Source: Polyangiales bacterium
GTDB taxonomy: Bacteria > Myxococcota_A > Polyangia > Polyangiales > JADJQN01
Direction: 5' to 3'
Assembly: GCA_964202905.1 (NCBI GenBank)
Contig: CAXNJO010000002.1
Location: 640,001 to 704,000 of the forward strand
DNA length: 64,000 nt
Shown: positions 21,484 to 47,787 of the stretch, piece after piece
Layout of the letters: the number at the start of each line of letters is the position of its first letter
Position numbering within the stretch: position 1 is the stretch's first letter
The notes under the pieces: generated by a model
Seen by the model: only the letters and a program-made list of their open reading frames with translations
Told to the model about the DNA's origin: nothing
Databases searched by the model: none
Translations under genes and position numbers: made by a program

Positions 21484-23908
21484 ATGACGCTTCCGCCGCA
21501 GCGCGCCCCCGAGGGCGCCGCGCCCGCCCCAGACACCGCGACCGCCCGCGGCGGGGACACGCGCGCGGCGGCCTCGCGCAGCGGCGCGTCGCCCCGCGGC
21601 ACGATGCAGATGTGGGCCGCGCTCGGCGACTCGATCGGGCGCGGGAGCGGGAGCGGCGGCGCCGGGCTCGACGAGACGGTCGCGTCGGTGCTGCACGCGC
21701 GCGCATTTCGCCACTTCGCGGAAGGGGCGCGGCAATATCTCGCGCTGCGACTCGGGAGCGCGGAGGCCGCGGACGTCGCGCTCCGCCGGCTGCGGATCAT
21801 CGCGGGGGAGTGGCCCGCGACCGAGCTCATCGCGCCCCCGGGCCCGCGCGCGCGTCTCTATCGCAAGGCGCGCGAGCTCGCGGCGGCGCAGCGCGGCGCA
21901 GGCGGCGGGCCTGGCGCGAGTTCGGGGGCGGCGCTCCCCTGGCGTCCCCCGGCGCACGACACCCCGGCGGCGTATCGGCGCGCGCTTGGCGAGGTGCGGG
22001 CGCTGCCGACACACCTCGCGGAGGTGCTCGAACTCCGTTTCGCGCGGGAGCTCGGCGAGGCGGAGATCGCCTTCGTGCTCGCGGCGGACGGCGCGCAGGT
22101 CGAGGCGATGCTCGGCGAGGCGACGCGGCGTGCGGAGGCCCTGCTCGGACCGAGCCCGCCGAGCGTGATCCCGGGCCTCGCGGGCGCGCTCATCGAGGCG
22201 TTTTCCCTCGAGCCGCCCGGCACCGCGACGGCCAGCGTGCGCGCGTCCGAGGAGCCCGGCGGCATCGAGCTCGGCACCGTGCTCGGCGGGCGCTACCGGC
22301 TCGAGAAGCGCGTCGGCGCGGGCGCTTTCGGCGAGGTGTACAAGGCCGCCGACACCGAGGTGCCCGGTCACGTCGTCGCGCTGAAGCTGCTGCACCAGCC
22401 GGCGCTCAGCGAGAACGCGCGCGCGAACGCGCTGCGCGAGCTGAACCTCATCGCGTCCGTGTTCCATCCGTCGATCGTGCAGTTCAAGGATCACGGCTGG
22501 TTCGCGGGCCGGCTGTGGTTCGTGATGCCCTGGTACGACGGCGAGCCGCTCGAGAAGCGCATCGCGCGCGAGCCGCTCACGCGTGCCGAGGCGCGCACGT
22601 TCTTCGAACCCATCGCGCGGGCGCTCGCGACGATGCACGCGTCGGGGCTGCGCCATCAGGACATCAAGCCCGACAACATCTTCCTCGCGCGCCTGAAGAC
22701 GAGCGCGCACACGACCGCGGGCGACGTGCTCCCGGTGCTGCTCGATCTCGGCGTCGCCGCGAAGGACACGGAGGCGATGCTCGGCGGCACGCCGCTCTAC
22801 TTCCCGCCCGAGATCGCCGCGCAGTTCGCGGACGTCGCGAGCCCCTACCCCGTCACGCTGGCCGCGGATGTGTTCTCGCTCGCGCTCACGCTGCGCAACG
22901 CGCTCGAGCCCTCGACGCAGGAAGACGTGCCCGGCGGCGCGGTCGAGGCGTTCATCGCGCACCGCGCAGCGCACGTGCCGCGGGCCCCGGTCGGCACCGA
23001 CCTGCGCTACCTCGCGCCGCACTTCGAGCGCTGGCTGAACCCGGACCCGGCGCGCCGTCCGACCGCCGACGCCTTCGCCGACGAGCTCGCCGCGCTCACC
23101 GCGCCCGAAGAGCGCCGCGCCCGCCGCGCGCGCACGCTGCGCTGGCTCGCGCCGCTCCTCGCCGCGCTCGGGGTCGATCAGCGGCGCCTCGTTCTACGCG
23201 CTCCGCAAGGACGCGCAGCTGAGCGCGCTGCTGGCCTCGCAGGCGCAGGCCGACGCCTCGAACGCCCGCGCGGAAACCACGGAAATCAAGGCGGATCTGG
23301 CGATCACGCAGGCGCGGGAGCAGGCCCTCAGCGACGACAACGGCTCGCTGCAGGACGCCATCCGCCGCAACCACCTGTCGCAGGAGCAGCTCGTGCGCGA
23401 GCTCGCGACGACGCAGGCGCAGGTGCAGCGCCTCGGCGAGGCCGTCGAGCGCAACAGCGAGCGCGCCGCGTCCCTGGCGGGTGCGCTCGAAGCCGCCGAA
23501 ACACGGGGCGCGCAGCTCACGACCGAGCTCGCGCAGATGCGCAGCACGCGCGAGGCCGCGGAGCAGCGCGGCGCGCAGCTCACCACGGAACTCAGCGGCG
23601 CGCGGCAATCGCTCGCAGCACGCGAAGGTGAGCTCGCGACGGCGCGTCAGTCGCTCGCGGCGCGCGAGGGCGAACTCGCACAGGTGCGCGCGGACGAAGA
23701 GCGCCTCACGCGCGAGCTGACGCAGGCCCGCGCCGACGCCGAACGACTCACGCGCGAGCTCGCGGAAGCGCGCAGCGACGCGGCGGGCGCGGCCGCGCAG
23801 ATCGCCGCCGCCGACGCGCGCCGCGCCGAGGCCGAGCGCGACGTGAGCGAGCTGCGCCGCGAGCTCGAGCGGCTGCGCAACGCCGAGCCTGCGCCCGCGG
23901 GGCCCTGA
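21484..23908 (+). CDS. Ser/Thr protein kinase with N-terminal sigma-factor-like region, TM segment and C-terminal coiled-coil repeats; frameshift near 23180
   Basis: GAGAFGEVY, VALKLL, HQDIKPDNI, DLG and GTPLYFPPE. The coiled-coil tail (ELATARQSLAAREG repeats) continues in ORF 23393..23908. Confidence 0.85.
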
Positions 23909-24125
23909 GCCGCGCGGCGCGCTCGCTCGCGCGTCAATAGCCCCGATACGCGGGCCCGGCTTCCTTGCGGAGCGACATCACCGCGATCGAGATCCGCGCG
24001 AGTCCTTCGCGAGGTAGTGACGCGGAATCATCGGTTGGTGCAGCAACTTGCCGAGCCGCGTGAGGGAGAAGGTGCCGAGCACGGGATTCGACGCACCGAG
24101 CCCGAGCGATTCCCAGCGCGCGAGC
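23644..24125. repeat. Host junction copy A: 3' end of kinase gene plus diverged 3' end of the HemN-like gene (also at 27584-27999, 40341-40756, 43010-43425)
   Basis: The sequence matches across four places, e.g. GAGCTCGAGCGGCTGCGCAACGCCGAGCCT...TCAATAGCCCCGATACGCGGGCCCGGCTTCCTTGCGGAGCGACATCACCG. Confidence 0.93.
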
Positions 24126-24947
24126 CGCAAGAGCACGCTCGGGCGCGTGGTGCTGCGGCTCATCGAGCCGACGAGCGGCACCATCCGCTTCGATGGTCAG
24201 GACATCACGCACGTGCCGCAGCGCGCGCTCCGCCCGCTGCGCCGCTCGATGCAGATCATCTTCCAGGACCCGTACAGCTCGCTGAACCCGCGCATGACCG
24301 TGCGGCAGACGGTGGGCGAGGCGATGCGCATCCACGGGCTCGTCACTTCGGGCAAGGACGAAGAGGAGAAGGTCGCGCAGCTCCTCGTGCGCGTCGGCCT
24401 GCGCGCCGATCAGATGACGCGCTATCCGCACGAGTTCTCGGGCGGGCAGAGGCAGCGCATCGGCAGCGCGCGCGCGCTCGCCGTACAGCCCCGCTTCATC
24501 GTCGCTGACGAGCCGATCAGCGCGCTCGACGTCTCGATTCAGGCGCAGATCGTCAATCTGCTCAAAGACCTTCAAGAAGAACTCGGGCTCTCGTATCTGT
24601 TCATCGCCTGCGAGCTGAAGGTCGTCGAATACATGAGTCACCGCGTCGCGGTCATGTATCTCGGGCGCGTCGTCGAAATCGCGCCCTCCGCGCGGATCTA
24701 CGACGTCCCCAAACACCCGTATACGCCCGCGCTGCTCTCGGCGATTCCCGTCCCCGATCCGACGAAGAAGCGCGTGCGCATCCTGCTCGAGGGCGATGTG
24801 CCGAGCCCGCTCGACCCGCCGTCCGGCTGCACCTTCTACCCGCGCTGCCCGATCGTCGAGCGCGGCCTCTGCGACGTGAAACCCCCGCCGCTCCGCACCG
24901 TCGCCCCCGGCCACGAAATCGCGTGTCACAAGGCCGAAGAGGGGTGA
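24126..24947 (+). pseudogene. Oligopeptide/dipeptide ABC transporter ATP-binding protein (OppF-like), 5'-truncated at Walker A
   Basis: It begins abruptly at KSTLGR and contains [23 protein letters not shown] and [15 protein letters not shown]. The H-loop is degenerate (ACEL). Confidence 0.88.
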
Positions 24948-25142
24948 AGCGCGGCAGGCGCCGCGTGCCGTGTCGACACGAAGGGGGGGTCGCATGGCCC
25001 GAGTGCGTCAAGGGCAATCGCGTCCACGTCGCGCGTGAAACAGGTATTTCCCGTTTCCATGTGCGGATGGGGAATGCCTCGACGGGTGGCTGGCGAGGTT
25101 GGGAGAATGGGATTCTCCGCCACCCGATGATTGCCCCCGAAT

Positions 25143-26708
25143 TCAGCGCGCAGCCGCGCTCGGGGAGAATGGCGGAGACATCGCGACACCGAACCACGGG
25201 ATGGGCGGGCGGTCCTGCGGCGGGATGCGGCGCAGGAGCGGCTGTGTGCTGACGATGGCGCGGAGCGGCCCGAGCCGAGACCAGGGGCCTTCGAAACAGG
25301 CCAGCGAGTTGGCCGCGTTCGTCCAGAACCCACTTCGTTCTTCGCCAGGCACGGTCCAGCCGGTCGGCGTGTCAGGCGCGTCGGCGACGACGCAGACGAG
25401 CCGTCCGCGCGCGTCGACGAGGTAGACCGAGAACGTGTCGAGCGGCATCGGTGCCTCGCCCCGGCGCAATGCGACTTCGAGGACGCCCGACGCGCTCACG
25501 GAGGCCTCCACGGTGACCGAGTGCGTCGGCACGAAGCGGCCGCGTGTCGTGTAGAGGCCGTCGTCGGCGAGCGTCACCGGCTCACCCACGAGCTCGGCGA
25601 TCGCCAACGTGATCACATCGACCGCGCCCGCGCGCGCGAAGGCCGCGTGCAGTGACGTGTCGAGCGCGCGGAACGGCAGTGGCTCACCGCTCTCTCCGAG
25701 CGGCAGCGCCAGCGTGGTCTCGTCGCGGGTGAGCGCGTCGAGCAGCGCCACGGCGCCGCGCCCCGCCCGTCGAGCGAGCGTGAGCGGCGCGCCGGTCTGC
25801 ACGACGTGCTGCGCGCCAAGGCCGCCCTCGAGGACGAGATCGGGGCGGAGCGTCGCGCCGCTGCGAAGGTCGAACTCACGGAGCACCGTCCGGACGTTGG
25901 AGCCCGTGAGGACCACGAGGCGTTCGTCGCTCACCTCGGCGCGGAGGAGGCCATCCTCGCGATCGCTCTCGCGGGAGGGTGCGCGCCAGAGCGACGCACC
26001 CGTGGTGCCCGCGTGGAGGGCGAGGGCGCCGTCCTCGCTCGATTGCACGAGGATGCCGGCGTCGGTGGCGAGCGCGACGCCGCCCTGATGCTGCGCACGG
26101 ACGGACCAGCGCCGCGCGCATGTCGCAGGGTCGTGGACGTCATGGCGGGTCACGCCGTCCGTCGCGCTCTCGCCCTCGTGGACGGTGATGACCAGGGCGT
26201 CGCCGGCGAGCGCGACGTTCGCCGCCCTGCCGCCGGCCACGGGGATCGTGCAGCGCTGGGTGCCCGTGGCGAGATCCGCAACGAATACGGACTCGCCGTA
26301 AGGTCCGCCCCCGTCCGATGTCTGCCCGGCGACCCACGCCACCCGCCCTGCCGCGCTCGTGGGGCAGTGGCGGTCGGCGGGCGCCTCCCAGAGCACGGCG
26401 CCATCGCTGCGTCGTCGGACCGAGAGCGGAACCGCGAGCCCATCCCAGGGATCGACGCCGCCGGGCAGGAGGACGACGCCGCCCTCGACGTGCGGGGCGC
26501 AGAGATCGTCGGCGCGTGCGGCCGTCCATGAGGACTCGACGCCGCGGACGAACATCGCCTCCACCGCCGACGGGGCGTTCGCCACGGCTGCGGAGTGCAC
26601 GGCCGCGCGGGGCGGCCCGCCGCATGCGCTCAGCACGAGGGCGACGAGCGCGATGCGCGCGCTCGGGGCTGGCGCGTGGCAAGGCCGAAGGGTGCGGGCA
26701 GCGTGCAT
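25143..26708 (-). CDS. Lipoprotein with PQQ-like beta-propeller repeats
   Basis: Lipobox VLSAC and repeated DxxTG/DGxxxW blades (SDGAVLW, DLATGTQRC, HAGTTGASLW, FDLRSG). Confidence 0.7.
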   Translation of the reverse strand: MHAARTLRPCHAPAPSARIALVALVLSACGGPPRAAVHSAAVANAPSAVEAMFVRGVESSWTAARADDLCAPHVEGGVVLLPGGVDPWDGLAVPLSVRRRSDGAVLWEAPADRHCPTSAAGRVAWVAGQTSDGGGPYGESVFVADLATGTQRCTIPVAGGRAANVALAGDALVITVHEGESATDGVTRHDVHDPATCARRWSVRAQHQGGVALATDAGILVQSSEDGALALHAGTTGASLWRAPSRESDREDGLLRAEVSDERLVVLTGSNVRTVLREFDLRSGATLRPDLVLEGGLGAQHVVQTGAPLTLARRAGRGAVALLDALTRDETTLALPLGESGEPLPFRALDTSLHAAFARAGAVDVITLAIAELVGEPVTLADDGLYTTRGRFVPTHSVTVEASVSASGVLEVALRRGEAPMPLDTFSVYLVDARGRLVCVVADAPDTPTGWTVPGEERSGFWTNAANSLACFEGPWSRLGPLRAIVSTQPLLRRIPPQDRPPIPWFGVAMSPPFSPSAAAR

Positions 26709-26852
26709 GGCGTCGGCTCCTCGAGAGAGCGCCCGTATAGCTCCCCGCCATTGCGGCGCCATGGGAAGCGTCGTGCGTGGGTGCGCGCATGGTCGAGCTC
26801 GGCAACGAGGAGCGCGCGCGCCTGTACGAGCGGTTCGGGCGCTCGTACGCCG

Positions 26853-27583
26853 GCGCGTCGGACATTCGAACCCCTGATCTGCGCCCGCTCCATGCACGGA
26901 GGAACGCTACGCGGCTCAGTTGCCCCCCACCGGAGCCCGCGCCCGTTTGCCCGCCGGCGCCGATCTGCCCGCCCGAGCGACCGACCGCACCCGTCTTTCG
27001 CGAATGCGACCACCTTCAGCATTGCGTCGAGACGATCCGCCACGGACACCCCGTCGGCGAAGGCTGACCCATGCCGCTCGACGACAACTACGCCCGCTGC
27101 GGTATCGCCACCGCACGCGTCGAAACGCCTGTCGAATGCGCCAACCTCGGAAGCTGCATCTTGTCCGTCCGCGGCGGCCTCAAGCCCGGACTCGGTTGCC
27201 CACACGAAGGCTCCGCCCTCTACGAAGAGTGCGGCCGCTGGCAGCCGCCTCGACCTCGCGCCGCACGACGCGGGAGACGAGCGGCGTCGCGCCAGACGAC
27301 TCCGCCTACGGACGCGCGCTAGAGCCTCAACCGTTCAAGCCCGTAGTCTTCGCGCCGCGGGCTTTCGGCATTCGTGCCGCGCCGGCACCTCGGGGAGCAC
27401 GTCGTCGAACAGGTGCGCGGCCAGTGCGCGCGCAACACGCGATGCAGCACAGTGTCCTCCGGACGCCGCCGCGCATAGCCGTCCGCACGAGGTGCGTGAG
27501 CAAGAGCAGAACAAGCAGCGGCAACGGCAGACACCGCCGCTCATCGGCGCATCATCTGGCGCAGTGCTCAGCGTGCTCGGCGG
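26853..27583 (-). mobile_element. Non-autonomous IS91/ISCR-like element, copy 1
   Basis: Near-identical to 39610-40340 and 42279-43009. The minus strand encodes IS91-type transposase remnants YARRRPEDTVLHRVLRAHWP and AAHLFDDVLPEVPAR. The left end is oriIS-like. Confidence 0.75.
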
Positions 27584-28015
27584 CGTCAGTCGCTCGCGGC
27601 GCGCGAGGGCGAGCTCGGACGGGTGCGCGCGGACGAAGAGCGCCTCACGCGCGAGCTCGCGGAAGCGCGCAGCGACGCGGCGAGTGCGGCCGCGCAGATC
27701 GCCGCCGCCGACGCGCGCCGCGCCGACGCCGAGCGCGACGTGAGCGAGCTGCGCCGCGAGCTCGAGCGGCTGCGCAACGCCGAGCCTGCGCCCGCGCCCG
27801 CGGGGCCCTGAGCCGCGCGGCGCGCTCGCTCGCGCGTCAATAGCCCCGATACGCGGGCCCGGCTTCCTTGCGGAGCGACATCACCGAAATCAGCTCCGCG
27901 CGGTCCTGCGCGAGGTAGTGACGCGGAATCATCTGTTGGTGCAGCAACTTGCCGAGCCGCGTGAGGGAGAAGGTGCCGAGCACGGGATTCGACGTGCCGG
28001 CAAAAGACAAACGCG

Positions 28016-28448
28016 CTAACGGCGGCCCCACCACCACGATGCGTGCACGACCGCCTGATGGCGCGGCTCGGGGAGAAAGTCGACCGTGCCGATGGCGCCC
28101 AAACCGAAGCTCCCGGACGACGTTTCGAGGAGCGGCAAGTCGACGCCCATCGCGAACTGCACGACGAAGGTATCGGCGAATGTCGTCGGGCGATCTTCGT
28201 ACGACGAGCAGCCGGTGCGACGTGAACATGACGTCATACGCACTTCATCGAGACCTGAAAAACGCGCGTTGACCGCTCGGTAGCCGACGAGCGTCGAGAG
28301 ATGCAGGACGATCGGGCCGATCTCCACAGCAGCGCTCGGCCCCGCCGCGATCTGAGAGGCGAGTCGGCCTTCGGGCCCGGCTTCGACGAAGTTCGGTGCG
28401 ACCGCCCCATCGCGCTCAAACCAACCGACTCCAAACGAAAAACGCCCG
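28016..28448 (-). pseudogene. 3' fragment of the hypothetical gene found intact at 40773-41525
   Basis: It has the same C-terminus (...HASWWWGRR) and is cut at 28448. Confidence 0.8.
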
Positions 28449-29168
28449 GAGGCGCGCGCCTACGTGTCCGAGGCGCGCGCGGACGTGCTCGGCGTGCAGG
28501 GCGAGCTCGTCGACGCGCAGGTCGAGCTCGGCGCCGCGCTCGGCAGCGCGGACGTCGAGCGGCTCGCGACGAGCGGCGCGCTCCCGGTGCCGTCACTCCC
28601 CGCTGCAGAGGAGATCGAGCGCGCGCTGCGGGACGTCGCGGGCGTGCCGGAGATCGTCGCCGCGCGGCTGCGGGTCACGGCGAGCCGTGCGCGCGAGGCG
28701 GAGGTCGCGGCGGCCCGCGGGACGCGCTTCGACGCGGACGCGATCGTCTATCGCGAGTCGCCCGCGGGGCTGCTGCTCTTCGGGCAGGTCGGCGTGTCGA
28801 TGCCGCTCGCGGACCTCGCGGCGCGCGAGCGGGCGCTGGTGCGCGAGGAGACGGAGCTGCGCGAGGGTCAGGCGGAAGAGGCGGCCCTCGCCTGGCAGCG
28901 CGAAGCGCACCGCGTCGCGCACGAGGTCGAGCACACGGCGGCCGTCGCCGGGAGCTTTCGGCAGGAGCGCGTGCCGGCGCTCGAGGCGCTGCTTACCGCG
29001 CGGGAACGGCAGCTCGTGACGGGGGAGTCGACGGTGCTCCCGGTGCTCGAGGCGACGCGGCGCCTCGTCGAGGCGCGGGCCGCGCTGACGCGGGCCGACA
29101 CCGAGCACGCCTGGGCCGCGGTGCGCGCGTGGCTGTTGCTCGCGCTGAGGGAGTCGCATGCGGAGTGA
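28449..29168 (+). pseudogene. TolC/CzcC-like outer membrane efflux protein, 5'-truncated
   Basis: GQVGVSMPL and GESTVLPVLEATRRL (OEP C-terminal pattern). It starts abruptly at the repeat boundary and lies upstream of the adaptor and RND pump. Confidence 0.7.
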
Positions 29169-30246
29169 GCGTCGTGGTGCCGCGCGGTGCTGCGCAGGCC
29201 TATGTTTGGTGATCTTTTCACTGATCGGCTGCGGCAGCCCCACGGCGCCCGGCGCGGCGCAAGCCGAGGCGGCCGAGCGCGACACCCGCGAGCCGCGCTG
29301 GTCGGTCGTGTCCGCGCCCTCCGACCTCGCGCTCCTCGAGGCGCCCGCGCGGGTCGTTCCGGCGCCGGGCTCCGAGGCCCACGTCGCGCCCTCCCACGCG
29401 GCGCGCGTGCTGCGCGTGCACGTGCGCGCGGGGGACCGCGTCGAGGCGGGCGCGCCCATCGCCGACGTCGTCTGTCGAGTGCTCGAGGCCGCGGCGCGCT
29501 GGGCGTCGGTCGCGCCGCGTCGCAGCCTGCGCGCGCAGCGCCGCACCGAGCTCGAGGCGCTGCAGCAGGAGGGCCTCGTCGATCGCGCGCGCGTGCTCGA
29601 GCAGGACACCGAGCTCGCTTCGCTCGACGCGGAGCAGGCGCAGGCGCTCGCGACGCTGCGCGCGGCCTCGCTCTCGACCGCGGATGGCGCGCGGGTGCTG
29701 CGTCAGGGCCAAGTGACGCTCGCGGCGCCGATCGCGGGCACGGTGCGCGAGGTCTCGGCGAAGATCGGCGAGGTGCGTGAGCCGCAGGGCGAGCCGCTCG
29801 CGACGGTCGTGGCGCTCGCGCCGGCACGCGTCGAGGCCCGGCTCGCGCAGCCGCTGCCGGACGGCGCGGCGCTCGCCTTCGTGGGGCTCGACGGCTCGCA
29901 GACGGCGCTCGATGCGCGCGCGCTCACCGACACCATCGACCCGCACGACGGCCTGCGCGTGGTGTGGCTCGCCGCGGCGGAGGGCGCGGCGCCGCTCGTC
30001 GGCGGGCTGCACGGGCGCGTGCGGGCGACCGTGGCCGGCGCGGGCGTCGTCGAGGTCGACGCGCAGGCGCTCGCGCTCGAGGGCGGGCGCGTCTTCGTCG
30101 AGAAGCGCAGTCGCGAAGGCGCCCCGGAGCGCGTCGAGGTCGCCGTGCTGACGTCGTCGGCGACGCGCGCCATCGTGCGCGGGCCGCTCGCGCAGGGGGA
30201 TCGCGTCTCGCTCGATCCGGCGCGCGTGATGGGGGAAGAGGAGTGA
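29158..30246 (+). CDS. RND efflux periplasmic adaptor (CzcB/CusB-like)
   Basis: Lipobox LIGC, VHVRAGDRVEAGAPI, LAAPIAGTV and GPLAQGDRV. Confidence 0.82.
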   Translation: MRSERRGAARCCAGLCLVIFSLIGCGSPTAPGAAQAEAAERDTREPRWSVVSAPSDLALLEAPARVVPAPGSEAHVAPSHAARVLRVHVRAGDRVEAGAPIADVVCRVLEAAARWASVAPRRSLRAQRRTELEALQQEGLVDRARVLEQDTELASLDAEQAQALATLRAASLSTADGARVLRQGQVTLAAPIAGTVREVSAKIGEVREPQGEPLATVVALAPARVEARLAQPLPDGAALAFVGLDGSQTALDARALTDTIDPHDGLRVVWLAAAEGAAPLVGGLHGRVRATVAGAGVVEVDAQALALEGGRVFVEKRSREGAPERVEVAVLTSSATRAIVRGPLAQGDRVSLDPARVMGEEE

Positions 30247-33351: not shown

Positions 33352-33358
33352 GCGCGCG

Positions 33359-33724: not shown

Positions 33725-33880
33725 CGCGCGGGACGCTATCACGGGGAGTGAACGCGGCCGTGGAGGTCGTGCCTCTCCCGCGTCGCAGCGCCCATCCACC
33801 TCGCCTCGTACGGGCTCACGCCGGTTGCGCAGCTCCGTCGGCGTCGACGGGAGAACGATCGATTCTGGTAGCCTCGCGCG

Positions 33881-36198
33881 ATGGCATCGCTGCAGGCCGG
33901 CCAGATCATCGCCGGAAAATATCAGCTCCTCTCGCCGATCGGCGAGGGCGGCATGGGCGTCGTGTGGCGGGCGCGGCATCTCGCGCTCGGTCGCGACGTG
34001 GCGATCAAGCTGATTCACGAAGCCAGCGTCGATGGGACCCTCCGCGAGCGTTTCCTCCGCGAGGCGCGCCACGCCGCGTCGGTGCGCCATCCGAACGTCG
34101 TCGACGTGATCGACATCGGCTCGACGGAGGCGGGCCTCCCCTTCTTCGTCATGGAGCTGCTCGAGGGCCGGACTCTCGGTGCGCGTCTCGCTCTCGGACG
34201 CCTCCCGCTCGAGGAGGTGCTCTGGATCGCGGTCGGGACGCTGCGCGGACTCGCTGCCGTGCACGCCGCGGGGCTGCTTCATCGCGATCTCAAGCCGGAG
34301 AACATCTTTCTCGCCGTGGAAGGCGGGGAGACGGTCGTGAAGCTCCTCGATTTCGGCGTCGCCCGCAGCCAGCGCGAGCCCGCTGCGGCGGCGCTCCTGA
34401 CGCAGCCCGGGACGATGCTCGGCACCCCCGCGTACATGTCCATCGAACAGCTCCGCGGCGCCGAGGATCTCGACGCGCGCAGCGATCTCTACGCCGTGGG
34501 CGCGATTCTCTACGAGGCGCTCGCCGGACAGCGACCGCACGGCGGCGCGACGGTCGCGCTGCTGATCGCCGCCAAGCTCGAGCGCGACCCCGAGGCGCTC
34601 CTCGCCGTGCGGCCGGACCTCCCCGGCGCGCTCTGCGGAATCGTGCATCGGGCCCTCCATCGTCAACGGGCCGAGCGGTTCACGTCGGCCACGGAGATGT
34701 TGCAGGCGCTGCTCGGCGAACCCGACCTGGCCGCGCTCCTCCAGCGCGACGGGGCGTCGTTCCCGCGGACGCCGACGCCGGTCGCCGCGGCTGCAGCGCG
34801 TGAGTTTCCGACTTCTCCGCCGTCGCCCGTGGCGCGCACGGAGGCATGGAGCGTGACGCCTGCCGCGGGCGCGCCTCCGAGCGGCGTGGCCGTGACCGCG
34901 CCCTGGACGCCCCCCGATGCGGGGATGCCTGCCCCGCTGCCTCCTTCCGCGGTCGCCTCGCCGACCACGTCGAAGACACCGATGTTCCTCGCGGCCGCGT
35001 TGGCGCTCGGCGTGCTCGGGGTGTGCGGGCTCGGCGCCCTGCTGTTCTGGATGCGTGGCGACGCGGGCGACGAGGCGTCACGCGTCGCGGAGGCCGCGGC
35101 TCCGGCAGCGGGTCATTCCGCGAGCTGGATCCTCGGGGAGGCCGCCGCGCTGTCGATGCTCGCCGCGCAGTGGCGGGCGATCCAGTCCGATTCGGCGCGC
35201 GACGCCATCCGTCTCGTGCGGCAATCGGACGATGGGAGATATCTACCCATCATGGTCGAGGGTAGTGATGCGGAGTGGGCGACTCTCGCGGCGCGTCGCT
35301 TCGGGGGCACGCCCGTGCGTGCCGAGGTGCCCGCGGGCGAGCAGGTGTCTCTCACGCTGTTACGAACAGGAAGCGTGACCCTGCGCGCGGGGCCGACGAA
35401 ACGCACGGAGCGTGTCGATGCGCTCCAGTCGGGTGTCCTCGTTGCCGGCGTCCGGGGCGCGTCGGCGGGACGGAGTCGCCGACCGAAGGTCCGAATCCTT
35501 GGGCGTTCGTCGTCTCGGACGGCGAGCGGTTGGGGTGGGTGTCCGTCCCGGAAGGCCGCCGCAATCGACAACAACCCGCTCCCCTCGAGGCCTACGGAGG
35601 TTGTGCACCGGAGTTCGATGCGTTCCTGAACGAGCTGCCGAGCGAATACCGTGCTTCTGCGCTCGCGGAAACCTCCATCCGCACGACCTCCGACATCGCG
35701 AGTGCCCCGGGACAGCAAAGCGGGTTCGTCATGCGCTTCAACCTCCCGGGCGACGACGGCGCCTACGTCGGTCTGTTCGCGTCGTCGGCGGATTGTCGTC
35801 TGTCGCTCCTCGGTCTTCATCGCGTCGATCATCCCGTTCACCTGACCTACCTCTGCGACGCCATCCCCAACATCGGCCCCAAACTGCTGATCGTGCGAGG
35901 CCCCGCCCTCACGCAGGGTTACGAACACTGGCAGGCGTTCGTGGTCGGCGAGCCCGGCACGGTGTGGAGTACGTCGTTGCTTTCGGACGAGAGTCTCGGT
36001 CGGCGGAGCGTGCGAGTCCGAATTGCCGCGACCACGACTCAAGGTCTGTACGCGCCGGTCTCCGTGCAACGGCCCGAGGCGCCCTATCCAGAGCTGTTCG
36101 TGTGGGATGGCTCCCAACTCCGCTCTTCGGACATGGCCGCTGGGGGCAACTACTTTGGCGACGAGGGCTCGGGCGACGAGTTCGGCGAATTCGAATAG
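33881..36198 (+). CDS. Membrane Ser/Thr protein kinase with extracytoplasmic C-terminal region; probable frameshift near 35450
   Basis: GEGGMGVV, HRDLKPENI, DFG, GTPAYM and a TM segment. A coherent protein continues in ORF 35275..36198. Confidence 0.85.
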
Positions 36199-36264
36199 AC
36201 CTCATTCCATCACCCCTCCATCGTCACCGGAAGTCGGTATTCCCGCGTCGAGAGCCTCCAATTC

Positions 36265-38937
36265 ATGACGCCACGCCTCTCTCGCTCGACACTCCCTTGC
36301 GAGCCGCCGCACCTCATCGTCGTCGGCCGCGACCCGGCGCGCGTGCACGTGGTCGTCGAGCACCCGAACGTCAGCGGCGCGCACCTGCGCCTGGACCTCG
36401 CCGCGGGGACGATCACCGACCTGCAGAGCTCGGCGGGAACGTACGACTCCAGCACACGTCGACTCCCGCCCGGACAGCCCGTTCCGCTCGATGCGGCCGG
36501 CAGCGTCGCGCTCGGTCCCGTCCGGCTGACCGTCGCGGACATCGTGGCCGTCGTACGGGGGGCGATACCATCCAATCCCCCGGAAGCCTCCCGTACGCCT
36601 GCGCGCGCGACGACGGCGGCGGGATCTGCGGCGCAGGTGTCTCCGTCCGCGGCCCACGTTTCTCCGCCTGCGGCGGCGGGGCCGACGGTGCTCGGCCGCT
36701 CGCGGCTCGGCGCGCATTCGGGGGCCGCCGTCGTCCTCGGCCGAAGCCCGGACAACGACATCGTGTTGCCCTATCCGCAGGTGTCGGCGCGCCACGCCCA
36801 GGTGACGCGCGGCGCGGATGGGCAACTCCGCATCGTCGACCTCGGGAGCTCCAATGGGACCTACGTGGAGGGGCGGCGATTGCGCTCGGGAGAGAGCGCT
36901 GCCCTCGCACCCCAAATGCGCGTCTGGCTGGGGCCCTATGCGCTCGTCATCGACGACGACGACGGCTCCATCGTCACCTCCGTCCAGCGCAGGAACGATT
37001 TCGAGAATGCCAACGTCGTCGAGATCGAGGCGCTTGGCCTGGGCCTGCAAGTTCCTGATCGCACGCGCAAAGGCACGCAGAAGGTGCTGCTGAACGACGT
37101 CACCTTCAAAGCGCTGCCCGGCGATCTGATCGCGCTGATGGGCCCGTCCGGCGCGGGGAAATCGACCCTCCTGACCGTGCTCAACGGCTCACTCCGGCCC
37201 ACTTCGGGTGAAGTGCGCGTCAACGGCGAGAACCTCCACGCGATCTACGACGCGCTGCGCGGCAGCATCGGTTACGTCCCGCAGGACGATCTGCTGCACG
37301 CGGAGTTGACGGTGCGCGAGGCCGTCTCGTTCAGTGCGCGCGCGCGTCTGCCCCCGGATTTCTCCCGAGAAGAGGTCGACCGTCGGGTCACGAAGACGCT
37401 CACCGATCTCGGACTCGAGCACGTGGCGGACACGGTGATTGGCTCGCCGACGCACAAGATCCTGTCGGGAGGGCAGCGCAAACGCGTGAACATCGCGCTC
37501 GAGCTGGTCACGGATCCGGCGCTGCTGTTCCTCGACGAGCCGACCTCCGGGCTCGCCGCCGACGACACGGTGGCACTGATCGACCTCCTCGCCGGCCTCG
37601 CGAATCGCGATGGCAAGACGGTGGTCGTCACGATTCACCAGCCCGCCCGGGAGGAGTTCGAGAAGTTCAATCTGGCGCTCGTGCTCGGGTTCGGCGGTGA
37701 GCCGGTGTATTTCGGCCCGACCGGCCGCGCTGCGTACGAGTTCTTCGCCGGATATCGGGGGCGACCGACGGAGAACCCCCGCGACATGTTCTTCCAGCTC
37801 AAGAGCCGGGAGGACGACGCCGTCGCGCGCGGTCAGCTCTCGAGTCGCTCGGAGGCCCGTCTCGCTGCGGCGCGCGAGTGGCGGGGCGAGTTCTTCCGAC
37901 CGGACAATCCGATCTACCGAAGCATGTATTCGGGCCGTCGCGAGCCCGGCACACCGGGGACGGTGCGTCCGTCGACGCGCTCCCGACCGTCGCGTGCAGG
38001 GCAGTTTCTCCTCCTGCTCACCCGCTACGCCACCATCAAGGTTCGTGACGTGTCGGGATTGATGGTGATGTTGCTCCAGGCACCGTTGATCGGAGGGATT
38101 CTGTCGGCCGTCTTCTCGGAGACGCCCGCGGTCCCGCAGCTCTGGTGCCAGAACGAAGTCCTCACGATCGAGCGCAATGCGCGTTGTGCGGCGTCGTTGA
38201 CCGAGCGATTCCTGCCCGTGCGGGATATGAAGGCAGCGCTCTTCATTCTCACGATCAGCGCGCTCTGGTTCGGTGTGAGCAACGCGGCCCGGGAGATCGT
38301 CTCCGAGACGGCGATCTACCGCCGTGAGCGGATGGTCAACCTCTCGGTTCTCAGCTACGTCGGGTCCAAGTTCGTCCTGCTGGCTGCGTTCTCTCTCGTG
38401 CAGTGTCTGGTCTTGCTCGGTTTCGTCTACGTACCTTTGGAGCTCGGGTCCGGGACGTTTGCAGCGTTTCTACCGATGTTCGTCTCGATGGGTTTGACGT
38501 CGACGTGCGGGGTCGCGCTCGGCCTGTTGATCTCGACGGTCGTCCGTTCCGCCGAAGCCGCCATGGCGCTGACGCCGATCGCCTTGATTCCACAGATCGT
38601 CATGGGTGGCCTGCTCGTGCCGATGACGAACAAGGCGTGGCTGGAGTGGCCGATGGCGGCGATGCCCTCGCGCTGGGGATTCGAGAGCATGGTCGCCGCC
38701 GAGCGCGAGACGCTCCGCGAGGGCTGGGACGTCGCGACCTGCGCCACCGGGGCCGAGTTCGTCGACCTGCGCGGCCAATTCGACTGCGCCGTGGCGGAGA
38801 TCGCCGGCGGTCACAGGGGTGCGCTTGGATTCGCGAGCTGGGATTCCGCGCTCACGCACCACGGCGCGCTCGTCGCGATGTGCGTCGTGTGTCTCGTCGC
38901 GGTCGTGGTGTTGCTGCGCCGACGCGACGCGATCTGA
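36265..38937 (+). CDS. FHA-domain ABC transporter (FHA-FHA-NBD-TMD, Rv1747-like architecture)
   Basis: Two FHA motifs (VGRD...VSGAH...SSAGT and LGRSPDNDI...VSARHA...GSSNGTY), GPSGAGKST, LSGGQRKR, LDEPTSG and an ABC2 membrane domain. Confidence 0.92.
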   Translation: MTPRLSRSTLPCEPPHLIVVGRDPARVHVVVEHPNVSGAHLRLDLAAGTITDLQSSAGTYDSSTRRLPPGQPVPLDAAGSVALGPVRLTVADIVAVVRGAIPSNPPEASRTPARATTAAGSAAQVSPSAAHVSPPAAAGPTVLGRSRLGAHSGAAVVLGRSPDNDIVLPYPQVSARHAQVTRGADGQLRIVDLGSSNGTYVEGRRLRSGESAALAPQMRVWLGPYALVIDDDDGSIVTSVQRRNDFENANVVEIEALGLGLQVPDRTRKGTQKVLLNDVTFKALPGDLIALMGPSGAGKSTLLTVLNGSLRPTSGEVRVNGENLHAIYDALRGSIGYVPQDDLLHAELTVREAVSFSARARLPPDFSREEVDRRVTKTLTDLGLEHVADTVIGSPTHKILSGGQRKRVNIALELVTDPALLFLDEPTSGLAADDTVALIDLLAGLANRDGKTVVVTIHQPAREEFEKFNLALVLGFGGEPVYFGPTGRAAYEFFAGYRGRPTENPRDMFFQLKSREDDAVARGQLSSRSEARLAAAREWRGEFFRPDNPIYRSMYSGRREPGTPGTVRPSTRSRPSRAGQFLLLLTRYATIKVRDVSGLMVMLLQAPLIGGILSAVFSETPAVPQLWCQNEVLTIERNARCAASLTERFLPVRDMKAALFILTISALWFGVSNAAREIVSETAIYRRERMVNLSVLSYVGSKFVLLAAFSLVQCLVLLGFVYVPLELGSGTFAAFLPMFVSMGLTSTCGVALGLLISTVVRSAEAAMALTPIALIPQIVMGGLLVPMTNKAWLEWPMAAMPSRWGFESMVAAERETLREGWDVATCATGAEFVDLRGQFDCAVAEIAGGHRGALGFASWDSALTHHGALVAMCVVCLVAVVVLLRRRDAI

Positions 38938-38966
38938 GCGGAGTTCCGAGAGGGGAGCCCGGCCCC

Positions 38967-39609
38967 TCAACGCCGCCGCGGCGCGCGGAGCTGGAGGCGC
39001 AGCGGGACTTCGTCGCGGATGAGGTCGTCGGGCATGCCCGGGTAGACGATCCCGAAGTCGCGGCGGTTGATCGTGAGTTGCGCGTCGGCCTCGACGGCGT
39101 CGGGCGTGACGCGGATCGTCGCGGGGAAGCTGAGCGGCTTCGTGACGCCGTGCAGCGTGAGATCACCGCTGATGACGTGCGTCGCGCCGGGCGTCGTCGC
39201 GGTCGCGATCGTCCGCGAGACGAACTTCGCGCGTGGGAACTGCGGCGCGTCGAAGAGATCGGCGCTCAAGAGGTGCGTGCGCAGCCGCTCCGGCTCGATC
39301 ACGACGGAGTCCATCTCGATGTCGATCGAGACCTTGCTGCGCTCGGGGGCGCCGTCGACGAGCTCCACGGTGCCGGTGAAGCGCGAGAACGTGCCGTCGT
39401 GGCTGCCGGTGATCTTGCTGCCGGTGAAGCCGATCGACGACGTCGCGAGGTCGGCCTGGAGTGTTTCGGTGCCGGTCGCGGGCGCGGCTGCGGGCGGGGC
39501 GGCTGCGGCTGGCGGGGGCGCTGCAGGCGGCGTCGGTGTCACCGTCGCAGGGCTGCTCGACGCGGCGGGAGCACTCGATTCGCTGCCGCAAGCGCCGAGG
39601 AGGGCGGCG
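38967..39609 (-). pseudogene. YceI family lipoprotein whose extreme 5' end is removed by element copy 2
   Basis: SSIGFTGSK, HLLSADLFDAPQFP, GDLTLHGVTKP and INRRDFGI. The signal peptide is cut just before AAALLGAC. Confidence 0.85.
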
Positions 39610-40340
39610 GCGCGTAGGACATTCGAACCCCTGATCTGCGCCCGCTCCATGCACGGAGGAACGCTACGCGGCTCAGTTGCCCCCCACCGGAGCCCGCGCC
39701 CGTTTGCCCGCCGGCGCCGATCTGCCCGCCCGAGCGACCGACCGCACCCGTCTTTCGCGAATGCGACCACCTTCAGCATTGCGTCGAGACGATCCGCCAC
39801 GGACACCCCGTCGGCGAAGGCTGACCCATGCCGCTCGACGACAACTACGCCCGCTGCGGTATCGCCACCGCACGCGTCGAAACGCCTGTCGAATGCGCCA
39901 ACCTCGGAAGCTGCATCTTGTCCGTCCGCGGCGGCCTCAAGCCCGGACTCGGTTGCCCACACGAAGGCTCCGCCCTCTACGAAGAGTGCGGCCGCTGGCA
40001 GCCGCCTCGACCTCGCGCCGCACGACGCGGGAGACGAGCGGCGTCGCGCCAGACGACTCCGCCTACGGACGCGCGCTAGAGCCTCAACCGTTCAAGCCCG
40101 TAGTCTTCGCGCCGCGGGCTTTCGGCATTCGTGCCGCGCCGGCACCTCGGGGAGCACGTCGTCGAACAGGTGCGCGGCCAGTGCGCGCGCAACACGCGAT
40201 GCAGCACAGTGTCCTCCGGACGCCGCCGCGCATAGCCGTCCGCACGAGGTGCGTGAGCAAGAGCAGAACAAGCAGCGGCAACGGCAGACACCGCCGCTCA
40301 TCGGCGCATCATCTGGCGCAGTGCTCAGCGTGCTCGGCGG
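39610..40340 (-). mobile_element. Non-autonomous IS91/ISCR-like element, copy 2
   Basis: Same sequence as copy 1; abuts the truncated yceI-like gene. Confidence 0.75.
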
Positions 40341-40772
40341 CGTCAGTCGCTCGCGGCGCGCGAGGGCGAGCTCGGACGGGTGCGCGCGGACGAAGAGCGC
40401 CTCACGCGCGAGCTCGCGGAAGCGCGCAGCGACGCGGCGAGTGCGGCCGCGCAGATCGCCGCCGCCGACGCGCGCCGCGCCGACGCCGAGCGCGACGTGA
40501 GCGAGCTGCGCCGCGAGCTCGAGCGGCTGCGCAACGCCGAGCCTGCGCCCGCGCCCGCGGGGCCCTGAGCCGCGCGGCGCGCTCGCTCGCGCGTCAATAG
40601 CCCCGATACGCGGGCCCGGCTTCCTTGCGGAGCGACATCACCGAAATCAGCTCCGCGCGGTCCTGCGCGAGGTAGTGACGCGGGATCATCTGTTGGTGCA
40701 GCACCTTCCCGAGTCGCGTGAGGGAGAAGGTGCCGAGCACGGGATTCGACGTGCCGGCAAAAGACAAACGCG

Positions 40773-41525
40773 CTAACGGCGGCCCCACCACCACGATGCG
40801 TGCACGACCGCCTGATGGCGCGGCTCGGGGAGAAAGTCGACCGTGCCGATGGCGCCCAAACCGAAGCTCCCGGACGACGTTTCGAGGAGCGGCAAGTCGA
40901 CGCCCATCGCGAACTGCACGACGAAGGTATCGGCGAATGTCGTCGGGCGATCTTCGTACGACGAGCAGCCGGTGCGACGTGAACATGACGTCATACGCAC
41001 TTCATCGAGACCTGAAAAACGCGCGTCGACCGCTCGGTAGCCGACGAGCGTCGAGAGATGCAGGACGATCGGGCCGATCTCCACAGCAGCGCTCGGCCCC
41101 GCCGCGATCTGAGAGGCGAGTCGGCCTTCGGGCCCGGCTTCGACGAAGTTCGGTGCGACCGCCCCATCGCGCTCAAACCAACCGACTCCAAACGAAAAAC
41201 GCCCGCCGAACCAATGGTTCGGCAAGTACACAGCGGCGTCGATCGCCACGCCGTTTGACGACGGTGAGAGAAAGCCGAGCTCGCGCCCGGTTGCGTCTGG
41301 ACCTGCTCCTTCAACGACAGTGCGAAAGCGCGAATCGGCCACCCCCAGCGCCGCGTGCCACCAGCCGACACGAAGCGCGAGCGTGACGGGCTGTCCCTCT
41401 GCGGCGGCGATCCCGACGAGAGGCGTGGGCGCCGTGGTCTGCGCGAAGCTCGACGTCGGCGCGACGAACGAGATCGCGGCGAAGAGAACGAAGACGAAAC
41501 ATGCGGCGTTGCGATGGTTCCTCAT
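40773..41525 (-). CDS. Secreted/outer-membrane hypothetical protein
   Basis: Signal peptide (CFVFVLFAAISFVAPTSSFAQ), alternating aromatic beta-strand pattern and a Trp-rich end. Confidence 0.65.
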   Translation of the reverse strand: MRNHRNAACFVFVLFAAISFVAPTSSFAQTTAPTPLVGIAAAEGQPVTLALRVGWWHAALGVADSRFRTVVEGAGPDATGRELGFLSPSSNGVAIDAAVYLPNHWFGGRFSFGVGWFERDGAVAPNFVEAGPEGRLASQIAAGPSAAVEIGPIVLHLSTLVGYRAVDARFSGLDEVRMTSCSRRTGCSSYEDRPTTFADTFVVQFAMGVDLPLLETSSGSFGLGAIGTVDFLPEPRHQAVVHASWWWGRR

Positions 41526-41752
41526 CGATGCGTATAGCCCATCCGATCGCCCCTTCGGTCGTGCTCCGTGACGCTGCATCTTCTCCGAACGCTACGCGAG
41601 CGCGCCGCGGAGCACAATCTCGACGTCAATGCTGCTCTGCCGGAGGCGCGTCGACGTGCCTCGAGCGCCCACTTTCAGCGCATGTTCGCGCAGCGAACGC
41701 ACGTCTCCCTGACCGCGCTGTGCGCAGCCGCTCGACTCACGGTGCTCTCCGC

Positions 41753-42278
41753 TCAACCGAACACGAGCCGCAGCTGCCCGTGCGCGGACGCTCGCGGCTC
41801 GGCGTCGGGCGGCGCTCTCGGCGGCGCTCTTGCATAGCCGCGCTCGCTGAGCACGCGCGCTATCTCGCCGGGCTTCTTCGCGATCTCGACGATGCGCAGC
41901 CGGCCGCCGCACTTCTCGCACTTCAAGATATCGACCGCGAACACCCGCTGCAGTAGCCAGCTCCACGGATGTCGCGACGGCTCGGCCGTCTTCTTCTTCG
42001 TGGCGCTCTTCGCTGACATCGTCGGCTCGTCCGTCTCATCGAACAGCGAGAGCTGCTTTGGCGGCGCGGCCGGCTTCTTCGGCACGACCTCGGCACGCAG
42101 CGACGAGTGCCCGGCGAGCACGCCGAGGTAGCGCATCAAATGAAAGCGCGGAGGCGGTACCAGCGCGCAAAGCCGCGCGATGAAGTCCGCGGGCGAGAGC
42201 ACGACGGCGTGCGTCCCGTCCCTCCACGCCTTCTTGAAGCGATAGACGACCTGTCCGTCATCGCGCAGCGACAGCCGA
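41753..42278 (-). pseudogene. IS91-family (Y2) rolling-circle transposase, C-terminal fragment
   Basis: RLSLRDDGQVVYRFKKAWRDGT, FIARLCALVPPPRFHLMRYLGVLA and WSWLLQRVFAVDILKCEKCGGRLRIV. Confidence 0.88.
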
Positions 42279-43009
42279 GCGCGTAGGACATTCGAACCCC
42301 TGATCTGCGCCCGCTCCATGCACGGAGGAACGCTACGCGGCTCAGTTGCCCCCCACCGGAGCCCGCGCCCGTTTGCCCGCCGGCGCCGATCTGCCCGCCT
42401 GAGCGACCGACCGCACCCGTCTTTCGCGAATGCGACCACCTTCAGCATTGCGTCGAGACGATCCGCCACGGACACCCCGTCGGCGAAGGCTGACCCATGC
42501 CGCTCGACGACAACTACGCCCGCTGCGGTATCGCCACCGCACGCGTCGAAACGCCTGTCGAATGCGCCAACCTCGGAAGCTGCATCTTGTCCGTCCGCGG
42601 CGGCCTCAAGCCCGGACTCGGTTGCCCACACGAAGGCTCCGCCCTCTACGAAGAGTGCGGCCGCTGGCAGCCGCCTCGACCTCGCGCCGCACGACGCGGG
42701 AGACGAGCGGCGTCGCGCCAGACGACTCCGCCTACGGACGCGCGCTAGAGCCTCAACCGTTCAAGCCCGTAGTCTTCGCGCCGCGGGCTTTCGGCATTCG
42801 TGCCGCGCCGGCACCTCGGGGAGCACGTCGTCGAACAGGTGCGCGGCCAGTGCGCGCGCAACACGCGATGCAGCACAGTGTCCTCCGGACGCCGCCGCGC
42901 ATAGCCGTCCGCACGAGGTGCGTGAGCAAGAGCAGAACAAGCAGCGGCAACGGCAGACACCGCCGCTCATCGGCGCATCATCTGGCGCAGTGCTCAGCGT
43001 GCTCGGCGG
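42279..43009 (-). mobile_element. Non-autonomous IS91/ISCR-like element, copy 3
   Basis: Offset 2669 from copy 2; homology continues through the host junction to 43425. Confidence 0.75.
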
Positions 43010-43262
43010 CGTCAGTCGCTCGCGGCGCGCGAGGGCGAGCTCGGACGGGTGCGCGCGGACGAAGAGCGCCTCACGCGCGAGCTCGCGGAAGCGCGCAGCG
43101 ACGCGGCGAGTGCGGCCGCGCAGATCGCCGCCGCCGACGCGCGCCGCGCCGACGCCGAGCGCGACGTGAGCGAGCTGCGCCGCGAGCTCGAGCGGCTGCG
43201 CAACGCCGAGCCTGCGCCCGCGCCCGCGGGGCCCTGAGCCGCGCGGCGCGCTCGCTCGCGCG

Positions 43263-44683
43263 TCAATAGCCCCGATACGCGGGCCCGGCTTCCTTGCGGA
43301 GCGACATCACCGACACGAGCGCGGAACGATCCTTCGCGAGGTAGTGACGCGGGATCATCTGTTGGTGCAGCACCTTCCCGAGTCGCGTGAGGGAGAAGGT
43401 GCCGAGCACGGGATTCGACGTGCCGAGCCCGAGCGATTCCCAACGTGCGAGCAGCGTTCGGTGCGCGGTCATCGTCTCGGCGCCGTACTTCTTCGCGCGT
43501 GAGCGCACGCGCGTCATCGGCGAATACAGCAGATCGAACGTGACGTCGCGCGTCGCGCGCTGGTGCGCGTCGAGCCGCGCGAAGCGAGAGATGGGCAGAT
43601 TCCCCGCCTCGACCGCGTCGCAATAGGCGTGGATATCACGGTGATTGAGGTAGGTCGCGCGGTCTCCGATCGAGAAGCTCGAGTGTCCGAAGCCGTGATA
43701 GAGCACCTCGCCGTACGCGGGATTCACGCGCGAGGTCGCGAGCTCCCACAGCTCGCGGCGCACGTGGCGCGGCGACCGATAGAAGCGCGCCCCGAGCTCG
43801 CTCCAGCCGAGCTCGTCGGCGAAGACCTCGCGGGCGAGGGCGTCGCTGTGCGCCGTCTCGAGAAAGGGCGGCACACGCCGCGCGTCGCGGAAGGTGCGTG
43901 AGCGCGGGTCGTCGTGAAAGGGATACAGAAACACGCTGTCAACCGCTCCCGTGCGCGCGAGCTCGCGCGCCGCGGCGAGCGAGGCGGCGAAGGACGCGGG
44001 CGTCTGCCCTTCGAGCCCGGTCATCAGATCGATGTTGATGAAGTCGAATCCCGCGCTGCGGGCACGCGCGATGGCCTCGAAGACCTCGCGCAGCGGCTCG
44101 CCGTGGTGGTGAAAGGCGTAGAGCTCCGGGTCGAGCGTCTGCACGCCGAGGCTGATGCGGCGGAAGCCCGCGGCGACGAGCGCGTCGAGCTTGTCGCGCT
44201 CGGCGGTGATGGGCTTGGCCTCCGCGGTGCTCATCGTGCGGGGCGGGCCAAGCGCAGGAGCAGCGCGCCGAGGAAGCGCTCGAGCAGCCGCCGCGGGAGC
44301 GCGGTCGGCGTGCCGCCACCGAGGAAATACAACGCCGGGCGAAGATGCGGCGCGATCGCACGGACGCGCGCCATCTCGGTGTCGAGCGCATCGACGTAGC
44401 GCGCCATCAGCGCCTCGTTGTCCTTCGTCGTCAATTCGTAGTGGAAGCAGTAGCGGCAGCGATAGCGGCAGAAGCCGAAGTGGAAGTAGAAACCTGCGTT
44501 GCGAAAGTCGCCGACCGCCTCGGCGAGAAAGGCGCCATCCGTCGGCGCACCGCTCGCCGTGCGCTCGAGCGTCACGGCGGGCGGGTATGTGAGCTGATAA
44601 TCGTGCATGTCCGGTGCAGGCACGAGCGCGGGATCGGCCGCGAAGACCGCGCGCAGATCCGATTCGAGCTTCATCCGATTCAT
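43263..44683 (-). CDS. HemN-like (class C-type) radical SAM protein; frameshift near 44240
   Basis: FYFHFGFCRYRCRYC, YFLGGGTPT, RISLGVQT and INIDLMTGLEGQT; ATGA overlap with the upstream gene. Confidence 0.88.
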
Positions 44684-45779: not shown

Positions 45780-45811
45780 GATCTACGCGGGCCGCTCCTC
45801 GCGACCGCCGC

Positions 45812-47769: not shown

Positions 47770-47787
47770 GCTGCTCCGCGGACGGTA

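Follow-up and report, generated by a model that had tools for sequence, protein, structure and literature searches.

A candidate ISCR-type gene-capture array built on a repeated host-gene junction in a lake myxobacterium

Results

The DNA analysed here, hereafter the window, is a stretch of 64,000 nucleotides (G000:C2:640001-704000, from contig CAXNJO010000002.1) of a Polyangiales genome of 5.68 Mb that is assembled in 19 contigs and 94.5% complete. Within it, the junction between the 3' ends of two convergent host genes, encoding a Ser/Thr kinase and a HemN-like radical-SAM protein, occurs four times, and a 728-bp unit related to the insertion sequences (IS) of the IS91/ISCR group precedes three of these copies. 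We interpret the locus as a gene-capture array of the ISCR type, put together by a rolling-circle element that is non-autonomous, a reading to which we assign a probability of about 0.72. Along the transposase strand, three successive modules each run from junction through element, oriIS and cargo to a partial junction. Every oriIS abuts a cargo, and the ter-like end is passed in all three unit copies, the same host junction following on the ter side each time, so that read-through appears to be the rule here.

The nearest named homologues of the radical-SAM protein belong to Sandaracinaceae and other Myxococcota (73-78% identity), "HemN" being merely the label that the source databases give to the radical-SAM family at the right edge of the array. 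The four metagenome runs compared with the window are all lake-water metagenomes, and the host is a free-living lake myxobacterium.

The repeated host junction

An initial annotation of this DNA, made from the sequence alone, had proposed a convergent kinase-3'/HemN-3' junction in four copies, and self-BLAST bears this out (E 1e-159 to 0). In each copy, ~270 bp from the 3' end of the kinase gene are separated by 25 bp from the 3'-terminal 163-194 bp of the radical-SAM gene. The annotation also had the kinase intact only at the left copy and HemN only at the right; both genes are indeed full length there (Table 1), but in this assembly each is split by one frameshift. Since 798-802-aa kinase homologues align to the resident kinase across two frames, and close homologues of both flanking genes are single open reading frames (ORFs), these frameshifts are probably assembly errors.

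The copies do not share one sequence. Within the kinase part, two indels, of 42 bp and 6 bp, set copy 1 apart from the others; at these and at all 6 single-nucleotide polymorphisms (SNPs) there it differs from copies 2-4, and all of them lie to the left of a 93-bp identical stretch. The radical-SAM ends comprise at least three alleles: at the C-terminus copy 2 equals P0002, a 95%-identical relative, copy 4 equals P0123 and copy 1 is of a third type, while copy 3 is of the copy-2 type at the extreme C-terminus and of the copy-4 type at four sites further in.

Table 1 Features of the array and its flanking genes (positions within the window)
Feature	Position	Strand	Remarks
Resident Ser/Thr kinase, C-terminal coiled coil	21520..23908	+	full length, one frameshift near 23175; Pfam Pkinase
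Junction copy 1	23640..24127		kinase 3' end and last ~194 bp of radical-SAM gene, no element ahead
Cargo 1	24128..26852		oligopeptide ATP-binding cassette (ABC) ATPase 24129-24947 (+); PQQ/BamB-like beta-propeller 25143 to ~26710 (-); CRP-type gene stub to 26852 (+)
Unit copy 2	26853..27580	-	oriIS-like end, carrying one substitution, at 26853; ter side ends at 27580
Junction copy 2	27581..27999		kinase 3' fragment and radical-SAM 3' 163 bp; C-terminus like P0002
Gene X 3' part, relic	28000..28448	-	449 bp, same as 40757-41205 but for 1 SNP
Cargo 2 core	28449..39609		half TolC-type gene, HlyD, AcrB-type resistance-nodulation-division (RND) gene (to 33679), kinase, FHA-ABC, cut YceI
Unit copy 3	39610..40337	-	mini-IS91/ISCR unit
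Junction copy 3	40338..40756		mosaic
Cargo 3 proper	40757..41529	-	complete gene X (41525-40773), signal-peptide-like N-terminus, no Pfam match
IS91-family 3' half	41530..42278	-	tnpA codons ~345-519 and oriIS end; Y2_Tnp E 9e-12; 86% aa to intact TnpA
Unit copy 4	42279..43006	-	mini-IS91/ISCR unit; adjoins 41530-42278
Junction copy 4	43007..43455
Resident HemN-like radical-SAM gene	43263..44683	-	full length, one frameshift near 44250

The mini-element and its ends

An IS91 remnant of ~730 bp had been described ahead of junction copies 2-4, and this description stands: the unit measures 728 bp, has only 2 variable sites across that length, and occurs in the whole genome three times, always in the array. 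On the minus strand it starts at a boundary common to IS91 copies on contigs C5 and C17, whose flanks differ, continues with the start of tnpA (codons ~19-43 at 88%, by tblastn), also holds a 48-bp piece of tnpA codons ~113-127, and finishes in an oriIS-like end. The ter-side boundary, shared by three flanks (window, C5 and C17), ends in CTCG(G) on the transferred strand, like the IS91 cleavage site.

At the opposite end, the final ~65 bp are collinear with the downstream ends of three IS91 copies on C3 (47-48 of 66 positions) and the terminal 9 nt are identical to those of an intact element on C6 and C15, described below. The last 22 nt agree at 13 positions with the ISCR1 oriIS as printed in PMC13023784, a match that was equalled or bettered at 11 of 200,000 random positions on C2. 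The terminal motif recurs downstream of tnpA on C3, C6, C15, C17 and C18 with different flanks. A search of 40 relatives gave a single match to the unit, namely the 35 bp of its ori end in the same-genus genome G001, where the flank is another one. An exact 30-nt pattern from the unit had no match in the metagenome contigs, while a 23-nt pattern with 2 mismatches allowed picked out two genomes, G001 and G293, among 400 others of the order; in G293 the match looks tRNA-like by eye. In G001 the ori end (G001:C37:12821-12855; L011:1500-1533) stands behind an ATPase-like gene and is followed, by eye, by a toxin-antitoxin-like pair and an IS91 3' remnant.

Terminal inverted repeats and target duplications, the marks of a DDE element that the initial annotation had set against its own reading, were looked for among the 25 longest of 62 repeat pairs and in the printed ends and flanks, and none were found; the unit has no transposase either. 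Its interpretation as a DDE element or a miniature inverted-repeat transposable element (MITE) was rejected, as there is no end-to-end inverted repeat and no target duplication. We also set aside by eye a tRNA-like T-arm reading of the ori end (which contains GGTTCGAAT), the stem being unpaired and the stretch collinear with IS91 ends. An apparent preference for cutting after CG at the read-through ends (4 of 6) was dropped, since the boundaries are ambiguous and other ori flanks disagree.

The unit is a non-autonomous IS91/ISCR derivative, and its likely descent can be read from copy 4, where it runs straight into tnpA codons ~345-519 and then a second oriIS at 41530. Most simply, 41530-43006 can be read as a single defective element of 1.48 kb that has two origins; the 728-bp unit would be its ter-side portion, as mobilised from the inner of the two. 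Ter side and outer origin are of the C5/C17 type, and the end of the inner origin resembles those of C3 and of the intact C6/C15 element. Two further features of the unit may be recorded. At position 26859, within the terminal oriIS motif, copy 2 differs from copies 3 and 4 by one substitution, which may reflect a dead origin or an error; and the middle of the unit contains, on the strand opposite tnpA, a Cys-rich ORF of 83 aa (42497-42748; best Atlas score 0.79, low recognition).

The cargoes

The cargo coordinates given initially are right within 2 bp. The description of the cargoes as unrelated has to be given up: 28000-28448 is the same sequence as 40757-41205 (1 SNP), and 41530-42278 is the 3' half of an IS91 element with its oriIS. 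Because copies 2 and 3 share this further 449 bp beyond the junction, the cargoes are not independent, and the captures are nested. Half of cargo 3 is the remainder of the same IS91-family element, whose end is found in 6 other places with different flanks. The start codon of gene X lies 4 bp beyond the outer oriIS, and we would guess that its product is an outer-membrane protein.

At five cargo boundaries a gene is truncated (oppF, crp, gene X/tolC, yceI and tnpA). In cargo 1, the oligopeptide ABC ATPase gene (oppF) is cut at residue 81 of 352, inside Walker A, and of the CRP-type gene only the first ~21 codons are present. The two ends match C3:376573-375742 (95.7%) and C3:368575-368467 (79%), a resident locus where the equivalents of both flanking genes are whole and ~7 kb of other genes lie between them. 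The core of cargo 2 matches C5:370758-365518 at 86% and, at its YceI end, C5:365269-364630 at 80%, the yceI gene being cut in the signal peptide. Its Ser/Thr kinase (33881-35629) and FHA-ABC transporter (36265-38937) are absent from the resident C5 locus. As the resident loci correspond to cargoes 1 and 2 at either end but not in the middle, and since the junction alleles differ as well, capture would have taken place in other strains, and both cargoes would be slices of equivalent loci from related strains or species. The HlyD/AcrB genes (29158-33351) show several 1-2-bp deletions against the resident C5 copy, a sign of either decay or assembly error.

Islands that integrate usually leave repeated 3' gene ends behind. 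One could accordingly picture the locus as a series of tandem islands that a site-specific recombinase inserted at the 3' end of the radical-SAM gene, or as DDE composite transposons, with the IS91 pieces as bystanders, and the repeated gene ends would fit that picture. However, no tyrosine or serine recombinase was found within the 64-kb window (Pfam PF00589 and PF00239, which have 3 and 5 matches elsewhere in the genome), the duplicated stretch varies in length between copies and includes the element itself, and the cargo ends lie inside genes, with no inverted ends, no target duplication and no constant att core. Islands are thereby largely refuted, and we regard this explanation as very improbable.

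A transposase in trans

The array itself contains transposase fragments only. The intact IS91 transposase that the initial annotation had suggested seeking elsewhere in the genome does exist: among 12 Y2_Tnp matches, two identical ones, at C6:389370-390932 and on C15, lie in uninterrupted frames of 520 codons. This HUH transposase has Zn_Tnp_IS91 and Y2_Tnp domains, both above cut-off, and a single HxH motif at 198-200; its best plasmid matches are IS91-family/ISVsa3-type proteins at 38-40% identity. The presumed catalytic Tyr335 has no partner Tyr four residues away. To our knowledge, ISCR transposases have one tyrosine.

The C3/C6/C15 type is the only subfamily with an intact transposase here. 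Given the mixed ends of the unit, one could speculate that it is a hybrid, joining the ter end of the C5/C17 subfamily to an oriIS of the C3/C6/C15 type, and that it serves as a standing integrase-free shuttle in lake populations, an idea that we hold only tentatively and judge more doubtful than probable. With mismatched ter and oriIS, such a unit would always read through, as ISCR1 does, and carry its homing sequence along. If this were true, the variable slots of sister strains (beta-propeller, kinase, FHA-ABC and outer-membrane protein) would be stacked at one site without harm to either flanking gene, and the content of the array would vary between strains.

IS91 arrays as such look common in these long-contig myxobacterial genomes. 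On G000:C13:102752-121757 there is a second array, of another IS91 family, with four ~935-bp pieces of oriIS plus tnpA 3' end and, in addition, a 276-bp piece with ori only, all of which break off near one codon; between them lie TetR, PLD and SPASM genes, a PIN/Phd pair and two ISAzo13-type DDE copies. Clusters of IS91 remnants, several of them ori-side only, alternate with cargo (SDR/TetR, a beta-lactamase-fold protein) at G000:C3:295000-306500 and C17:5400-29300. The order-level relative G004 carries IS91 copies in tandem (58-66% to the transposase on C6), spaced by intervening DNA (C17:3000-22999, C15:226000-245999 and C29:1-14000). A foreign insert of ~35 bp near tnpA codon 350 is found in several remnants (C3:~299555, C17:~26426) and also in G001 (L011:~2680-2740). 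Such arrays are thus common in the group (C13, C3, C17, G004); the special feature of the present locus is the duplicated host junction.

Proposed route of assembly

The core proposal of the initial annotation, an IS91/ISCR capture system that is free of integrase and uses a host junction as its landing pad, finds support in the order of the parts, the lack of a recombinase in the window and the transposase available in trans. From the sequence we infer the following steps and their order. In some strain, an IS91-family element would have entered the 3' end of the kinase gene, its ter side towards the kinase tail and the radical-SAM gene, after which the central part of its transposase would have been lost and a second oriIS, further in, acquired. 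A transposase acting in trans would start at an oriIS, skip the ter end and carry element and junction to a new site. From there, a second read-through would continue into neighbouring genes and close a circle of ori, element, junction and cargo, which could recombine by homology into the junction of a recipient or into an earlier element-junction copy. Each such recombination would leave a whole kinase gene on the left, a whole radical-SAM gene on the right and one added junction copy, and three rounds would give the present array. For cargo 2, a copy beside gene X may have read through, stopped inside X, landed in tolC and been re-mobilised with the RND-YceI region; the 449-bp relic in cargo 2 would be explained by its circle having come from a copy that already adjoined gene X.

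A simpler scheme would dispense with circles and have the unit and junction copied, by local one-ended transposition, into neighbouring DNA that was already there. Copies 2 and 3 do look like the outcome of read-through that ran for different distances, 1,596 and 1,147 bp when counted from the ori end, and IS91 often transposes in a one-ended manner according to the excerpted text of PMC13181058. Yet removal of these inserts would join the crp stub to half of tolC, and the cut yceI to gene X, all of them pieces of loci situated on different contigs. Moreover, copy 1 comprises a whole kinase and a radical-SAM stub without any element, which transposition alone cannot produce, so that homologous recombination is needed; it is what a single crossover within the junction would be expected to leave. 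We consider one-ended transposition quite improbable as the sole process.

Assembly support and points against the array

Contigs of four of 20 listed metagenome runs were compared with the window at 88% likeness, and the figures below derive from 32 of 3,255 pieces. The junction of radical-SAM stub and cargo 1 is bridged by contigs of runs X1 (study P1, possibly the source of the assembly) and X3 (study P2), the latter contig having 67 differences and 8 gaps in 784 bp and representing a diverged strain. The junction of cargo 1 and ori is bridged in X1 and X7 (study P6), and that of ter and kinase in X2. With junctions bridged by contigs from three studies, cargo 1 and the element are real and common to several lakes. 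Within cargo 2, four pieces from X1 match the window exactly. In X2, cargo 1, gene X and the unit are covered and cover is low over most of cargo 2, which could mean that cargo 2 is polymorphic; we did not count missing contig cover as evidence.

As to a site without the array, a full-length kinase (P0126) and the full-length radical-SAM protein P0002 are both listed on a contig of 11,830 bp (NCBI and JGI), too short for the 19.8-kb array. The equal contig sizes suggest, by indirect inference, an empty site in a relative; two locus scans for a direct view gave no close strain (best 73% and 78%). Genomes G001-G003 have no close radical-SAM homologue (G001 is 80% complete), and the kinase loci of G002 and G004 have no radical-SAM neighbour.

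A number of observations count against a capture array. Neither a circle, nor transposition, nor a donor locus with the element still in place was observed. The middle ~450 bp of the unit have no match in the genome or the 40 relatives and no useful Atlas match, and the ori flanks share no fixed target tetranucleotide. The SNP mosaic among the junction copies yields no single clean crossover, and could also be explained by consensus mixing between repeats. Of 25 radical-SAM loci from further afield, 21 of which extend at least 2.5 kb downstream, none has the kinase as a neighbour, so that the landing site is lineage-specific. Lastly, single-base frameshifts are present at several places in the assembly, and among the 32 pieces there is none that covers the array from end to end or reaches across any junction of cargoes 2 and 3.

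These last points bear on the possibility of misassembly, raised in the initial annotation, which is answered for the junctions of cargo 1 and not for those of cargoes 2 and 3, whose tandem order rests on the present assembly. It could be that the modules are real and that their tandem order is partly an artefact, alternative cargoes of one slot having been chained through the 1.15-1.6-kb repeats. A metagenome-type source with strain variation, the frequency of single-base frameshifts, the mosaic of copy-2 and copy-4 alleles in junction copy 3 and the lack of bridging pieces for cargoes 2 and 3 would all be in line with this. On the other hand, the copies have private SNPs and nested, base-precise ends, the cargo 1 junctions are bridged in three studies, and cargo 2 contains part of cargo 3, which ties the two historically. 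We therefore consider chaining unlikely, if the least so of the alternatives to our interpretation, and the capture mechanism would stand even if it had occurred.

Neighbouring genes

To the right, the array borders on a radical-SAM-rich region (43263-62735) with eight radical-SAM ORFs (Pfam), an acyltransferase, an LPG-synthase-like gene and MopE-motif proteins. The block of acyltransferase, 107-aa protein, radical-SAM and LPG-synthase is found again in most of the 25 homologous loci, which suggests a conserved uncharacterised lipid pathway.

Discussion

The two-step model of ISCR transposition explains much clinical movement of resistance genes, yet has been argued mainly from plasmid layouts, and the excerpted text of PMC13393415 describes elements of the ISCR type as ones that "may transpose" along this route. 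The present locus shows the same layout, arisen independently, with a host junction in the place of the 3' conserved segment (3'-CS), an element without transposase and a preserved intermediate in the form of the nested 449 bp. Our literature searches, which left most subscription journals outside their coverage, returned no report of a host-gene junction used in this way or of a transposase-less version. The locus suggests that, among environmental strains, read-through capture followed by recombination serves as a general way of exchanging genes. With the 728-bp unit, it also offers a natural substrate for a direct assay, along with a matching intact transposase.

Comparison with known systems

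With IS91, IS801 and IS1294, as far as they are covered in the excerpts used, the system shares an HUH transposase with Zn_Tnp_IS91 and Y2_Tnp domains, distinct ends, the lack of a target duplication, read-through, and mini elements movable in trans. Those excerpts of PMC13181058 state that mini-IS91 elements are mobile when TnpA acts in trans, that they often run past terIS, and that IS91, IS801 and IS1294 all have a fixed target tetranucleotide. The array, by contrast, has no such target, and its transposase has one Tyr in the motif region, where IS91 has Y249 and Y253. Judged by these two sequence traits, the system is closer to ISCR than to IS91.

The sdpA cluster of Sphingobium herbicidovorans MH, for which mobilome sequencing detected an IS91-made circle, resembles the array in its environmental host, its non-resistance cargo and its repeated IS91 pieces, as described in the excerpts of PMC5737581. 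There, however, IS sequences make up the repeats, which lie on a megaplasmid and have full transposases, whereas those of the array include host gene ends and the element is non-autonomous. The ISCR28 "sandwich", with two sequential oriIS, parallels the two origins in series at 41530-43006, and since ISCR28-sul4 is also recorded in a Myxococcota metagenome-assembled genome (cited in PMC12772301), ISCR activity in this phylum was already known. ISCR28, unlike the array, is an integron-linked resistance module, and its description in the excerpted part of PMC12772301 mentions no duplicated host junction.

The closest likeness is to the complex class 1 integrons formed by ISCR1. In the excerpted model of PMC7707992 and PMC13023784, two aberrant rolling-circle rounds produce a circle with a gene and part of the 3'-CS, which homologous recombination inserts once or repeatedly, and the multi-copy forms read 3'-CS, ISCR1, oriIS, gene and partial 3'-CS. 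The order and polarity are those of the array, the cargo again lies beside oriIS, the co-mobilised upstream segment is duplicated once per cargo, and several rounds are involved; different cargoes within one array are likewise known, from p388 (excerpts of PMC7707992). The array differs in that integron, intI1 and 3'-CS are all missing (a scan of 42 + 24 window ORFs gave no sul1/qacE-type family, and the window has no tyrosine recombinase), the homology being provided by the junction of two host genes. It differs further in that the element lacks a transposase and has a ter-like end, that the cargoes are cut chromosomal pieces rather than resistance genes, one of them nesting part of another, and that it resides on the chromosome of a free-living lake myxobacterium. 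The array thus works like a complex class 1 integron without being one.

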